Shown here piece after piece: positions 741-37,650 of a stretch of DNA of 64,000 nt. Source of the stretch: Eledone cirrhosa (Eukaryota). The translations under genes were made by a program, and so were the position numbers. Position 1 is the stretch's first letter. Each line of letters begins with the position of its first letter. The stretch spans positions 221,464,001-221,528,000 of the forward strand of contig OZ024743.1 of the NCBI GenBank assembly GCA_964016885.1, written 5' to 3'. The notes beneath the pieces are model-generated. The model saw only the letters and a program-made list of their open reading frames with translations. It had not been told where the DNA came from and searched no databases.

Positions 741-881
741 TTAAGATTTAGTTGAAGGTTTGAAGTGTGAGAACTTCGCTTTTAGTTTATGCTGGCAAAA
801 GATTGACCTTTCAATGTTGTTGTTGAGTAGTTGGTGGCCTGAGCTTAGGATATGGAAGAGCTCATTATTACACAACGGGCA
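741..881 (-). pseudogene. PLE GIY-YIG endonuclease C-terminal remnant
   Basis: Manual translation CPLCNNELFHILSSGHQLLNNNIERSIFCQHKLKAKFSHFKPSTKS* fits the Neptune-type CxLCxxExxxI...LLNxRxE...CRH tail. Confidence 0.7.
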
Positions 882-948
882 CGTTTTCTATGCTCCTCTA
901 TCTTACACTACTACCCCTTATTTCATTTCCTAAGGTCATTTCAACTTT

Positions 949-1049
949 GTATTTTGAAAATTCGGATGCCACAGTATCTTTCTTGATTGCCTATTATTAC
1001 ATAGTGTAGCAATAATGGACTGAAATTCTGATGAAACAATTGTTAATAC
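949..1049 (+). ncRNA. degenerate type I hammerhead with long stem II
   Basis: GTATT-TTGAAAA-(~70 nt)-GAAAC-AATT-GTT-AATAC: stem I GTATT/AATAC and palindromic stem III, but the core deviates from CTGANGA. Confidence 0.4.
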
Positions 1050-1226
1050 GTGGATTAAATCCTTTTGTAACTGTTTACCTTCGTCCTATTTCTCTTTTTT
1101 GATTACACTCCTCGTTTGTTCGTGTTTCTACTACAGAATCCCTACCAACCTGTCGAGTCACCTTAACGTATATTGATAACTTTCCTCACAACTTGTTCTA
1201 CCAAGCTTTGGAATATTCCTAATTAC

Positions 1227-1320
<94 letters not shown>

Positions 1321-1524
1321 GAACGAAATGGGGAGATAAAGAGGCAGGAACAGACTATGTGACAGATAGGGACACAGACAGATAATTATGCGGATGTAGG
1401 AGTGTGCCCTACATTATAAGAACTTTATGGAAAATTCAATTCATTTATATCAGTAAAACAAAACACAAGACAAAAACTGGATTATTGGTGAGTTGTTTGA
1501 CTACAACAGTATAGCAGGGACAGT

Positions 1525-1855
1525 GGTGGTAACATGGCCGAATACATAAGAAGTTTGCTTCACAGTTCTAAAGCCTCGGTACGATTTCATTGTGTGGCAT
1601 CTTATGCAACAACCATTTATCCATAGTCGCGGGTTGGTCCAAGCATTAGGTATGAAATTCGGCTCACGAAAACTGTTTGGATCTCCGTTGTAATTCAAAG
1701 AGGTTAGTTATATCACTCATTGTGTCACGTTGAATTTCACGGTGAATTAACTTAAGGATACACGTGCCTTTATAATACGCATCTATTTTCAGGCTGATGT
1801 TATGAGCAAGCTCTTCCGTTGGTTGAACAATTGGAACACATTGCTGAAATCGAAG
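1525..1855 (+). mobile_element. old tRNA-derived SINE (octopus-type family 2)
   Basis: CATGGCCGAATACATAAGAAGTTTGCTTC head; GTGTCACGTTGAAT...TTAAGGATACACGTG...GAGCAAGCTCTTCCGTTG 3' part. Related copies at 12450-12725, 31025-31284 and 63515-64000. Confidence 0.6.
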
Positions 1856-2245
1856 GTTAAATAAGTACAGAAACGAAAACCTTTGTAACATGTATTTTTT
1901 TTTTACAAGAAAACTAAAAAAATATCTAAAAATACAAGTAAGAAAATATATAATATAAAACTAAATAAAAGAAGGAAAAACTAAAAGTGAATGTAAAAGA
2001 AGAATATTGAATGGAAAGTTCTCGAAATACTCCAATTCCTATCAGCTTATCACCATTGAGGTTTAACTCACATTTCTCTCTACAAGAGAATCACTGATAA
2101 TCATTATTCGAGTTGTTCCCTCCTGAGATGTGTGTGAAGCATAATCTTCCCCGGAACACATATATAAGCTCCTTATATAATTCCTATTTTGATTAAATTC
2201 TACTCAGGAAGAAACAAACACAAAAAAAGATACGATCATCATCAT

Positions 2246-2345
2246 TTCTTCTTCTTCTTCTTCTTCTTCTTCTTCTTCTTCTTCTTCTTCTTCTTCTTCT
2301 TCTTCTTCTTCTTCTTTTTCTTCTTCTTCTCCTTTCTTCTCTTCT
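2246..2345. repeat. (TTC)n microsatellite
   Basis: Direct inspection. Confidence 0.95.
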
Positions 2346-2721
2346 CAATAGACATAACGTGAAGACAAATGTTATAACAAAGTCTCAACAGTTTACAATA
2401 CAAATACTAATTGCACTTTATACAGTATTCTTCCTCTTTAATTTTACTAACGTCATTCAAATTTGTTTACTTGTTTGTTTGTTTTTTCGGTTCTAAAGAA
2501 TTGGAACCAATGTTTTCTTAATCAGATATCTAACCTCCTTCAAAGGTTTAACGATGCTATTACCATTGTCAAAGGGGATGATGTGGCACAGTTGTCTGAA
2601 TATCGAATAGAATGTATTGTAGTATGTGTTCCACACTGAGCTCAAATCCCGACAAGCCCCATTTTGCCTTTCGTCCATTCAAGGTCGATAAATAAAATAT
2701 CAGTTCAATACTAGGTTGGAT

Positions 2722-2793
<72 letters not shown>

Positions 2794-3089
2794 TACACAC
2801 ACGTTTTCTCTCTGAAAGAGACCGGTTGTGTTCAGACCCGGAGAACAATGTGCTCATACAAGTCTAAAAATGTATTAAGCCATGCCCTATATCGGCAACT
2901 CCATCAAGGGTTATGGGCCCATGGATGGGCATAGATTAGCATATTCTAACTAACTCAATACCAATGAACGACAGTATTGTCATTAGCAGAATCAGGTTTA
3001 GAATAGATACATTCTACCCCTACACCAGAAAGGACATCTGACCGTAAAACTTCACCTCAAAAAGGATATAGTTGTGATATTCTAACTTA

Positions 3090-3505
3090 GCTGGTATGAT
3101 TGCCTGTAAACGCTTGATACCTTCGACATTCTGAGTTCAAATCCTGTTAGAATCAGCGGCGATTTTATTCTTCCAGGTTTGAGAGAATTTGTGAAAATTC
3201 ATAGGCCTAGCTTTGTGTTTGATGTTCATGCTGGTGTGTAGCTGTAGTTCAAAGAGCCAGCTTTGTAGCAGATAGTCACCCTGTGGTGCAGCTGTAAATT
3301 AAGGCCAAGCTTTATCATAGATAGTCATGTTGGAATGTAGCTGTAACTCAAAGGCCCAGTTTTGTAACAGTCATGCTGGTTCGGCTTGGGAATTATATTA
3401 TGATTATAGGTGCCTGTAGAATAATCTTTCTCTAACATATTGGTTTAAAGTGTCGGACGTTCGATTGATCAAACAACTAGATGCTCATCATCGAAACCAA
3501 CCGTG
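3090..3505 (+). mobile_element. degenerate SINE(s) with ~49-bp internal tandem repeats
   Basis: TTCTGAGTTCAAATCC B-box-like motif at 3130-3145; three imperfect copies of GCTGTARNTCAAAG..CCAGCTTTGT..CAGATAGTCA. Confidence 0.5.
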
Positions 3506-5781
3506 TGTTTGTGTCTGTATGAGCATGTGTGTGTCTGTTTGTGTGCCTTTATGTGTATATGCGTATGTACGTGTTCGTTTGTACGTGTGTACGTATGTAT
3601 GAGTGTCTGTTTGTGTGTAGGGGGAATAAGTCGTATTTAAATGTGGGTTTCTGTGTATGAATATGTGTGAGTGTTTATTTGTGTATGTGCATATATGTGT
3701 GTGTGAGAGAGAGAGAAAGCATATTTATGTATGTGTTTCTGTGTTTGAATATGTGGCTTTGTGTGTGTGTTTGCTTTTGTGTATGTGCGTATGTGTGTGT
3801 CTATTTTTGCGTGTGTGTGTGAGATTATTATGAGTGTGTGCTTGTGTATATATATGTGTGTGTGTTTGTGTGTGTGAGTTCTGCCTACAAGTATAAATCG
3901 TGCATGAACGTGTGAATTCAAGAGACATACCCAGACAAAGACATGCGCGCTCGCATGCTTGCTCGGTTCTGGATTAATGAATAGCTGGTGTCTGTTTTGA
4001 TTGTATTGTTGTTGTTCTCGTTGTTGTCTTGTTGTTTTGTTGTTGTTATTTTGTTGATATTGTTTATGCTGTTGTTGTTGTTTGGTTCCTCATTCAGCGA
4101 CAGCGAATAATAAACTTCTCTACATCAACAATGTCTACAACAACAATGTTGATATCTTGCAGTATTTAGATGTTGATGATGTCTAAACTAACAAGTATTC
4201 CCCCTTAATTTTACTTCTTAAGCAAACCCTTATTGCTTCGTTAATATTGTGTTGCTGTTATTGTTGATGTTGTTGTTCTTGCTGTTGTTCATCTTTTTTG
4301 CCGTTACTATTCGCATTTCAAAGAAGTTTAATCAGTAGGGAGTTTAAACTGAAGAATTAACAAAACAAAATTAATTTGGGCCTGAAAATATCAAAAATAA
4401 GGGAGGAATTTTTAATCAACAACTAAACCCATTCTGACGATTCTTTAATAAACACTTCGGTAGTTTCACGCAAAAGAAAAAAAACGCAATTTAAATAGGA
4501 TTTGAAATATAATAAAAAAGGATATTACAAAATTAAAGGAGAACTACCATGTTGAAACTAAGCTGTCATGTAAAATCGCCATTCCGCTAATAATCATCAA
4601 ATGTGCTAATCTAACTTGAAAGTGATCCAAAAATATAAAAATTAAATGCATTATTATAATCATGTAATGACGTGTCTAACTAAAGTTTCGTACCTCATCC
4701 GTTTTTCCGGGAGGAAAAATGATTTTATTCTAACTAAATTTAAACATACTCTAAGCTACTGTAGTCCTTTCCCCTGCCATGCCATTTTCAAACTGCTTTA
4801 CAATAATTAGAACAAAATTCTCCTTTCAAAGTATTTAAGCGCAGAAACGAAAATAAGACACAATCAGTGTCTAATAAATAAAAATATAATTTAAAACGAA
4901 ATACAATAAAACGGACAGCACAAAAGATCACAAGATAGTCATTATTCCTAATTTGTTGTTATGATGTTGAAAACACAAGAAATGAAAAGAAAACCTCCCT
5001 TTTTTTAAGTAAAATAATCTCCTCTAAACATTGGAGAATTGAAGCAAGTACCTAATGCAGAACAAATATTATTTCTGTCTATAATCTCTGTACACATACT
5101 TTGCCATCAAACTATACGTGACTTCTTTAGAAGAAAGGGAAAGAAAAAAAATCAAAATGGTAGTAACAAATGTCTCAATAGAAAGGAGATTCTATAACGA
5201 AGAAAAAATTTGTAAGGACTGTAGGATTTTGCCACGGAAAATAAACATGTAATTATACAAAACGAACTCAGATACTATCGACTAAAGCACGAAATGTGGA
5301 AAAGGCTGTCATTTTATTTTCTTTCTTTAAGCACAATAAATAAATCGTGGTCCGAACAGATCGGCTTAAATCCGTTATTTGTTATTTGATCATTTATAAA
5401 TCCATAACTCAAGGATAAATAACGAGTTGTAGCTACAAATGAAGGAAGGATTTGCTATACATTTTCTTTATATTTTGTGTTCAACTTGATTCGATGTCGA
5501 AAGGATAAATACTTCAAACTACTGTGTGATTATTTTACTAGAATGTCAATAATACTTAGAATAAAGAGTAGTAAAAGAAAAGAAAAAAAGAGAATATCGA
5601 AGATTAACTCTAATAGGTAGATTTATGAGTAATAAATGCAAATGGTGAATAAATCTATTCAAACAAATCGAATAGCAAACACGAATACATCAACGTAAAA
5701 ATAGAGACAGAAAGAAAAATGCCTGGCAATGCTAAGAAACGCTAAACTAAATTACAGATACTTCCGGTAGTCGTTTTCGCT

Positions 5782-32827: not shown

Positions 32828-33200
32828 ATTGGCAGTATCGGTAGAGGGTCTGACGCTATGCTTTGCAGCGAAGAGTTACGCCCCTTTATAGTTTGAGTTC
32901 AAATCCCGCCGAGGTTAACTTTGCCTTTCATCCTTACAGGGTCAATAAAATAAAGTACCAGTAATGCACTGATATAATTGCTGGCCTTGTGCCAAAAGTA
33001 GAAACAATTATAATTATTGGCAGTTTCAGTACAGGGTCGGACGCCATGTTTTGCAGCACGAGTTACGGCCCTTTATGGTGTGAGTTCAAATCCCGTCAGG
33101 GTTAACTTTGCCTTTTTATCCTTACGGGGTCGATAAAATAAAGTACCAGTAATGCACTGGGATAATTGCTGGCCTTGTGCCAAAAGTAGAAATAGTTATA
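32828..33200 (+). mobile_element. two head-to-tail near full-length SINE family 1 copies
   Basis: 32828-33012 and 33016-33200 each have a TTGGCAGT head, GAGTTCAAATCCCG B-box and CCAAAAGTAGAAA tail. Confidence 0.9.
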
Positions 33201-33207
33201 ATTATGG

Positions 33208-33360
33208 AACTGTTTCATTCGGGAGAAATCATCAGGAATCCTGATGATTACTCCCGAACGAAACAGTTATAGTCCTGTAGAAGCCATTTCTATATTAAAT
33301 ATGTATACTCTGCTATGTATTGAGTACCTTACTAACTGTGGTTACCACCGACTGAACCTT
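33208..33360 (+). mobile_element. short PLE-type terminus with 61-bp foldback over a hammerhead core
   Basis: 33208-33268 is a near-palindrome centred at 33238; CTGATGA...CGAAAC...GTC on the plus strand; ends in (TA)n. Confidence 0.5.
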
Positions 33361-33581
33361 ATATATATATATATATATATATAGATAGATAGATAATTTA
33401 ATATATCAACTAACATAAGCGCACAGATGCACGCCTATGCCAGCAAATACACAGGTTATGTCATAGTACCTAGGTGGTTCAATGCAGGAGGATGCAGAAC
33501 AATAATATAAAAGACGTAAAATAAGAAAATCTTTTTCAAAAATTTTTTTTTTTAATGTTTTACTTACTTACTTAAATTTTC

Positions 33582-33663
33582 ACTCCAACTAATTAGTTTC
33601 TGCAATGGGATAAAGACAGTTACGTAATCTAACTGTCGAGAATTCATTGCGTCATCAGGGAGT
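33582..33663 (-). ncRNA. type I hammerhead (inverted copy)
   Basis: Reverse complement of 34381-34462 with one loop substitution. Confidence 0.85.
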
Positions 33664-34380
33664 CTATTCTCAGCTAAGTCTGCAGGCAATGCGCGGACAC
33701 TGGCGGCTCATATAAAAATAATAATAATTCGGTAGATAGAACAGCTGGCGAGGACTGAATTCTATGTACTGAAATCCTCACTGCTTCTAGTCAAATGGCC
33801 GATTCTAAAGAATCAATCACGTGACACAGAGGCTAGTCAGAAGGAATGGGATGGTAAGATGACTGACGCCTACTAACACCCCCCCCCCAAAAAAAAAGAG
33901 TGAAAATTTAAGTAAGTAAGTAAAAAAATTTTTTAAAAAATTTTTTGAAAAAGATTTTCTTATTTTACGTCTTTTATATTATTGTTCTGCATCCTCCTGC
34001 ATTGAACCACCTAGGTACTATGACATAACCTGTGTATTTGCTGGCATAGGCGTGCATCTGTGCGCTTATGTTAGTTGATATATTAAATTATCTATATTTA
34101 TCTCCAAATCACTGATTTGTCGAGCAGACCTGCCAAAACCACTTCTAAAAAAATTTTTTTGGGGGTGTTAGTAGGCGTCAGTCATCTTACCATCCCATTC
34201 CTTCTGACTAGCCTCTGTGTCACGTGATTGATTCTTTAGAATCGGCCATTTGACTAGAAGCAGTGAGGATTTCAGTACATAGAATTCAGTCCTCGCCAGC
34301 TGTTCTATCTACCGAATTATTATTATTTTTATATGAGCCGCCAGTGTCCGCGCATTGCCTGCAGACTTAGCTGAGAATAG

Positions 34381-34462
34381 ACTCCCTGATGACGCAATGA
34401 ATTCTCGACAGTTATATTACGTAACTGTCTTTATCCCATTGCAGAAACTAATTAGTTGGAGT
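34381..34462 (+). ncRNA. type I hammerhead ribozyme
   Basis: ACTCC-CTGATGA-CGCAATG..GACAGTTA..TAACTGTC..CATTGCA-GAAAC-TAATTA-GTT-GGAGT; predicted cleavage after 34457. Confidence 0.9.
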
Positions 34463-34550
34463 GAAAATTTAAGTAAGTAAGTAAAACATTAAAAAAAAAA
34501 AATTTTTGAAAAAGATTTTCTTATTTTACGTCTTTTATATATATATATAT

Positions 34551-37650
<3,100 letters not shown>

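Follow-up and report, generated by a model that had tools for sequence, protein, structure and literature searches.

The window analyzed here (64,000 nt of Eledone cirrhosa, assembly GCA_964016885.1, contig OZ024743.1, positions 221,464,001 to 221,528,000 of the forward strand) contains, at 33389–34540, a two-armed insertion with a 643-bp plus arm and a 509-bp inverted arm, placed head-to-head (5′ to 5′) and each ending in (TA)n. In the numbering used below, position 1 of the repeated unit is the G that follows the predicted hammerhead cut, and 33898 is unit position 2. The features of the locus are as follows (with the basis of each in parentheses).

33360–33388, no strand: likely target site, a (TA)n/(GATA)n tract adjoining the inverted arm where its 3′ end lies (sequence)
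33389–33897, minus strand: inverted arm of 509 bp, unit ~258–561 then 1–~205, with its 3′ end at the long fixed site (inverted-repeat match)
33582–33663, minus strand: hammerhead motif of the inverted arm, with an intact junction (reverse complement of 34381–34462)
33898–34540, plus strand: plus arm of 643 bp, unit 2–561 then 1–83, with its 3′ end at the short fixed site (direct repeat)
33898–34458, plus strand: one 561-nt period (direct repeat)
33980–34101, plus strand: unit 84–205, the 122-nt "tail" by which the two fixed 3′ ends of the family differ (family 3′ ends)
34381–34462, plus strand: type I hammerhead motif, with the predicted cut 34457/34458 after GUU (fold)
34458–34517, plus strand: A/T-rich zone in which the 5′ ends of the family pile up, unit 1–60 (5′-end counts)
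34541–34550, no strand: short (TA)n that separates the plus arm from the adjoining (ATC)n tail of a neighboring LINE (sequence)

The direct repeat between 33898–33979 and 34459–34540, with a spacing of 561, makes the plus arm one period plus 82 nt long. The inverted arm is 97%–99% complementary to the plus arm, and its 3′ end is at a different fixed site (unit ~205) from that of the plus arm (unit 83). The first-pass annotation had the plus copy running through one 561-bp unit, past the ribozyme and into (TA)n, with an inverted copy of ~510 bp joined at its start point. This anatomy is found (the inverted copy measures 509 bp, at 33389–33897), except that the (TA)n after the plus arm extends over only ~10 nt before the (ATC)n tail of the unrelated LINE begins. 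The start at 33898 is also as proposed, within 1 nt of the predicted cleavage product: the 5′ end of the plus arm is the second base of the predicted 3′ product, 1 nt past the cut.

No open reading frame of at least 100 aa is present in 33389–34540, nor any reverse transcriptase (RT) or GIY-YIG frame. Since the 561-nt unit is without an RT and GIY-YIG open reading frame, the element is not an autonomous Penelope-like element but a passenger. The unit is strongly folded (z = −5.5), the GC content of the family is 36%, and an imperfect palindrome at unit 22–69 lies within or overlaps the zone of 5′ ends. A simple pattern search found neither Pol III A and B boxes nor TATAAA in the unit.

Other repeats surround the insertion. 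The (TA)n tract of the inverted arm is shared with a second, unrelated two-armed mini-insertion that has a hammerhead-like core (33208–33237 on the minus strand, 33239–33359 on the plus strand); relatives of 80%–90% identity, often two-armed, occur in ~20 fetched loci. Two tandem 188-nt copies of a SINE-like repeat, 88% alike, are found at 32828–33205. The LINE whose (ATC)n tail abuts the plus arm encodes an RT and occupies 34549–37455 on the minus strand, with RVT_1 and PHD matches and frames at 34910–36166 and 36082–37455.

The hammerhead motif and its conservation

In the predicted type I fold (z = −4.0), ACUCC and GGAGU form stem I, the core reads CUGAUGA...GAAA, stem III is palindromic, and the triplet is GUU, which is atypical; the motif at 34381–34462 and its predicted cut after GUU are recovered as first annotated. 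Stem II is extended, long, and branched. At positions 10.1 and 11.1, where G10.1–C11.1 is typical, there is a C·A mismatch that is fixed in the 561-nt family. An Rfam search, at the gathering threshold and then at E ≤ 10, returned no hammerhead match.

The core and the three stems are present and conserved in 138–143 insertions. One of 45 positions is polymorphic in the core and stems, compared with 52 of 347 elsewhere (p = 0.018), and the change at that sole position, from C–G to U–G, keeps the pair. Among 20 variants of the hammerhead, 98.9% of the cells pair, with two-sided changes in two of the 22 pairs; the covariation amounts to three cells in related sequences and probably reflects one or two events. 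The comparison of copies points to selection acting on the hammerhead fold. By analogy with the motifs described in PMC4209133, the palindromic stem III suggests that the ribozyme works as a dimer and is only weakly active, which would fit partial cutting.

In the experiments described in 10.64898/2026.07.22.740005, eight of nine predicted frog retrozymes did not cleave in vitro. In the lizard Penelope system, as described in PMC11167929, hammerhead mutants inserted normally and zero RNA reads ended at the site. The role of the hammerhead in Penelope-like elements and in the passengers they carry is called unclear in the account of PMC8557442.

Further repeat families with hammerhead-like motifs occur in the fetched loci (L259 at 786–3705; L083, L122, L036, L042, and L094), including a 310-nt tandem array, and some of these motifs have U·U at 10.1/11.1. 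An apparent match between the 561-nt unit and the 310-nt family proved spurious.

3′ ends and pairing of the arms

The host genome (3.0 Gb) is microsatellite-rich, and a first-look search gave 2,156 candidate copies in it. The 17-mer beside the cut site has 3,632 exact matches genome-wide, which indicates thousands of dispersed copies. The family has two fixed 3′ end sites, unit 83 and unit 205, separated by 122 nt; the patterns in which these ends are followed by (TA)n have 826 and 548 exact matches genome-wide (more than 1,300 3′ ends). In 29 of the first 30 loci, collected by a search that set no requirement for a (TA)n flank, the 3′ end falls at unit 83 or 205 before (TA)n. As their query started at the cut site, these 30 loci do not enter the 5′-end statistics. 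The sample used instead is anchored at the 3′ end and comprises the first 90 of the 826 matches and the first 90 of the 548, nearly all on one chromosome, with 193 distinct arms, or 188 uncensored 5′ ends once five arms that run off the fetched DNA are removed. Ends were mapped with a two-strand model, as the palindrome at unit 22–69 distorts simpler end-calling.

An inverted partner is present for 119 of the 193 anchored arms. Among 106 unique two-armed insertions, 88 pair an end at 83 with an end at 205, nine run off the fetched DNA, and nine have another partner end. No pair of like ends (83/83 or 205/205) is seen among them, and all 88 classifiable insertions are pairs of unlike ends (with a chance of 0.48 each). 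Arm lengths reach more than four units. None of the seven matches examined for a 3′ end at the cut site has one (0/7), as expected for internal priming.

According to PMC8557442 and PMC3846280, Penelope-like elements are marked by partial tandems, by an inverted copy truncated at its 5′ end, by a tail confined to one end, and by (TA)n targets. The 561-nt insertions share these marks with the EN+ Penelope-like pseudo-LTRs described there and in PMC11167929 and PMC4209133, and the resemblance extends to the inverted copy lying on the 5′ side and to a hammerhead that precedes the 3′ ends, has a palindromic stem III, and carries an additional base following A9. In the in vitro work presented in PMC11167929, both strands of the target are nicked and extended by the lizard Penelope protein, whose synthesis begins at two sites within the RNA; these two sites define the tail. 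In E. cirrhosa, a young autonomous element with RT and GIY-YIG and intact frames of ~900 aa also ends in (TA)n, and all nine complete inverted pairs of the autonomous Penelope-like element in 20 fetched loci consist of a short and a long end (9/9). The Penelope-type features that explain the inverted arm, namely two fixed 3′ ends and pairing of unlike ends, are absent from the first-pass annotation.

5′ ends and the nature of the template

The 5′ ends of the family are mostly scattered, with an excess in unit 1–60 (67 of 188, against 28 expected from exposure). The excess remains when A/T content is taken into account (p = 3e-8), and of 57 windows of 60 nt that were scanned, the best begins at 561/1. 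The excess is seen for both end types, for inverted, (TA)n-flanked, and other junctions, and for single arms too. Per pass, 68 of 286 end in the zone, compared with 21 of 218 in the adjacent 60 nt on its upstream side (p = 3e-5). Within the zone, there is a peak at unit 7–13 (17 ends vs. 3.1 expected); since an A/T run starts at position 7, just 3′ of stem I, stalling of the enzyme and trimming from a cut end both predict this peak. Positions 561–2 hold 3 of the 188 ends in this unbiased sample (1.2 expected, p = 0.13). At one locus (L133), both arms end at the cut site.

For nucleotide resolution, a break-capturing pattern over unit 542–4 was used. It has 126 matches genome-wide, of which the first 100 were tallied by eye and one, an internal deletion, was dropped, leaving 99; a script applied to the first 30 tallied rows agreed with the tally except for that deletion and two substitution rows. 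Among these 99 ends, the counts at positions 2, 1, 561, and 560 are 7, 6, 15, and 8, with 0–7 elsewhere. Positions 1, 561, and 560 together have 29 of the 99 ends tallied (of 126 matches), with 12.2 expected (scan-corrected p ~2e-4), and 26 of 94 under strict counting (p = 5e-5). The commonest exact end, 561, is one base past the cut and needs an added or chance-matching A. The peak of truncation points at GUU/G that the first-pass annotation had predicted is therefore present but small: most copies run through the site, with only ~1% of passes stopping at the cut site itself, and the larger excess lies 6–59 nt downstream, where stalling of the RT in an A/U-rich hairpin would account for it equally well.

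For a control site that shares the TCCA context, 100 of 105 rows were tallied by eye, with 17 rows checked on fetched DNA, and yielded 28 true ends; four of the 28 are at the matching positions. Expressed per anchor (3,632 vs. 1,887), the rate at the site is 4.5 times that of the control (p = 9e-4), or 3.2 times with strict counts (p = 0.007). As shares within the windows, 29/99 at the site and 4/29 in the control (a total later recounted as 28), the two do not differ significantly (p = 0.15). Thirteen of the 28 control ends (p = 0.002) belong to a ribozyme-free hot spot at unit 445–449 (34341–34345 in the window), inside a predicted long stem, whose density per base is slightly less than half that of the peak at the site.

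For the locus itself, the relevant count is that at 560–2, where 36 ends are seen and 16.5 expected. About half of such ends are background, and it is accordingly an even question whether the start at 33898 reflects the cut. Under a uniform model, a given arm would come within 1 nt of the site ~0.5% of the time and, with thousands of arms in the family, a coincidence at one locus says little. The earlier claim that the locus records ribozyme activity in vivo is thus reduced to a weak signal of the family. At that level only, we think it somewhat probable, from the distribution of ends, that the 5′ ends record cutting by the hammerhead.

The most serious competing explanation retains a Penelope-mobilized retrozyme and attributes the 5′ ends to stalling or fall-off of the RT in the A/U-rich hairpin and stem I, with junctions at A/T microhomologies and the 33898 start a product of chance. 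Stalling is compatible with a peak at 7–13 rather than at 1, with the overlap between the zone and both homopolymer runs and the palindrome, and with the second hot spot at 445–449; ~76% of passes cross the zone, and the hammerhead is dispensable in the in vitro assays of PMC11167929. However, other A/T-rich stretches (61–83, 181–200, 241–260, and 421–440) have end ratios of only 0.3–1.2, and the excess is not restricted to inverted arms, as it extends to single ones. A separate peak covers G/C-containing positions at the cut and is absent from the same-context control, and the hammerhead is conserved among the lineages that spread. We regard stalling as the sole cause of the 5′ ends as rather unlikely, while giving it real weight.

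Cutting of the template by the hammerhead, the reading that we prefer, leaves the form of that template to be considered. Successive passes within an insertion differ by 0.4%–0.6%, different insertions by 4.5%, and nearest-neighbor insertions by a median of 0.34% (161 insertions); ten variants private to one insertion occur in all its passes. Arms of this uniformity would be produced by a 561-nt circle copied round and round, with the excess at 561/1 due to an abnormal ligation junction (for example, a 2′-phosphate or a 2′-5′ link) or to nicked circles. Arms of more than four units and the lack of a pile-up at one full turn (five arms of 531–591 nt) agree with a circle, and abundant circular RNAs, with circles as templates, are described for related retrozymes in PMC7229834. 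With nearest neighbors only 0.34% apart, however, uniform arms are no proof of a circle, and uniform master arrays predict them equally. The junction has no excess of indels, which counts against a circle as well; a search for an A-to-I editing scar found none (distinct common alleles: A>G 10, T>C 10). Arms of the 205 type stop in the zone more often when they meet it for the second time (14 of 39) than for the first (12 of 77; p = 0.018). Because a circle lacks a 5′ end, and one nicked beforehand would halt the enzyme at the first encounter, ends like 33898 would require either a linear multimer that is partly cut or a stall that depends on sequence. Circles as the origin of the 561/1 excess appear improbable to us.

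The first-pass annotation had left the template as a multimeric or circular RNA. A partly cut linear multimer fits an arm that passes one intact junction and stops at the next, while the circular alternative lacks the 5′ end at which to stop. Circles may also exist and serve as templates, by analogy with the retrozymes treated in PMC7229834, and both routes may operate. The 561-nt family, rather than the 33898 locus, would thus weakly record cleavage, and only that of a linear multimer.

A DNA-level satellite spread by local duplication and fold-back repair, with no RNA step, is very improbable: some junctions are symmetric at short palindromes (L200, L058) and self-priming has been proposed for Penelope inverted repeats in the discussion of PMC3846280, but fold-back predicts like outer ends, which are found in 0 of 88 pairs, and dispersed copies with fixed 3′ and variable 5′ ends form a retrotransposition pattern. 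The first-pass description of the element as retrozyme-like and reverse transcribed is supported.

Proposed mechanism and relation to known elements

The mechanism that we favor, with some confidence but not a high one, is a two-armed insertion of the non-coding 561-nt family, carried out (likely) by a Penelope-like enzyme acting in trans on a template that is (likely) cut at a minority of its junctions. The Penelope protein would nick both strands of a (TA)n site, with one cDNA starting at unit 83 and the other at unit 205, both internal to the RNA. Each cDNA would extend until the enzyme falls off or reaches a cut 5′ end. The two cDNA ends would then be joined head-to-head, usually after trimming to a short A/T match, and such trimming would place many ends made at the cut site further downstream, by a few to tens of bases. 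Arms like the one at the present locus, which cross one junction and stop at the following one, would derive from partly cut linear multimers.

A stronger version, which we put forward tentatively and think doubtful as a whole, would read the 5′ ends as a fossil map of cutting by a non-canonical hammerhead in the germ line, with Penelope dimers that prime on both nicked strands at the two fixed RNA sites and copy partly cut linear multimers, and with about a fifth of all arms ended by the cut and subsequent trimming. If true, it would show from the genome that hammerheads associated with Penelope are active in vivo on the retrotransposed RNA itself, in contradiction to the in vitro finding that the substrate is uncut RNA.

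With its thousands of copies, a young family offers a countable read-out of where copying starts and stops. The strict pairing of unlike ends leads to a sharp prediction for Penelope insertion, i.e., one cDNA per nicked strand, each from its own start site. The excess of 5′ ends is a cheap test of cleavage in vivo, in an element class that is known and with a signal that is modest. A search of the main texts of open-licence papers found no earlier map that places 5′ ends relative to the hammerhead sites of Penelope elements or retrozymes.

Two other systems offer partial parallels. In R2 elements, the cut made by an HDV-like ribozyme defines the 5′ end, and a ribozyme cut is likewise a possible 5′ limit of the cDNA here, but only a small minority of the copies end at the cut. 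In the twin priming of L1, two primers from one target lead to head-to-head arms; two primers and head-to-head arms are shared, but the second priming site is variable in L1 and fixed in the 561-nt family.

The family is very probably a further member of the metazoan non-LTR retrozymes, with clear marks of Penelope-type insertion. With the non-LTR retrozymes described in PMC7229834 and 10.64898/2026.07.22.740005, it shares non-coding tandem units that each have a type I hammerhead, a GC content below 50%, a range from monomers to multimers, dispersed copies, and a proposed mobilization by Penelope-like elements; that retrozymes are passengers of Penelope is the thesis of the 2026 preprint (10.64898/2026.07.22.740005), as set out there. 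The unit of 561 nt is longer than the 170–400 nt given in PMC7229834 but inside the range of 51–972 given in 10.64898/2026.07.22.740005. In comparison with the retrozymes as described in these two sources, the present hammerhead has a long branched stem II and C·A at 10.1/11.1, and no terminal-repeat homology to the 561-nt unit was found in the three Penelope-like families sampled from the genome as possible partners. Fixed paired 3′ ends and 5′-end distributions, as obtained here, lie outside the retrozyme descriptions in those sources.

The differences from EN+ Penelope-like elements, as these are described in the four papers cited above for pseudo-LTRs, are of another kind. There is no RT or GIY-YIG frame in the present element, the tail is 122 nt long instead of 30–40 nt, and the one-sided tail, optional in the accounts of those papers, is near-obligate in the two-armed insertions here.

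Two young Penelope-like families of the same genome have hammerhead motifs of their own. The autonomous one found in L280–L287 (e.g., L282 at 3052 and 6178) has a period of ~3.13 kb and frames of ~900 aa. Its hammerhead core reads CCGAAGA in a near-identical subfamily and CUGAAGA in others, and the ribozyme may, judging from these cores, be dispensable for the family, which makes it a natural control for 5′-end tests. The other, in L308–L322, has a period of ~4.13 kb, frames of up to ~1,217 aa with an asparagine-rich insert, and two 3′ end sites roughly 56–59 nt apart.
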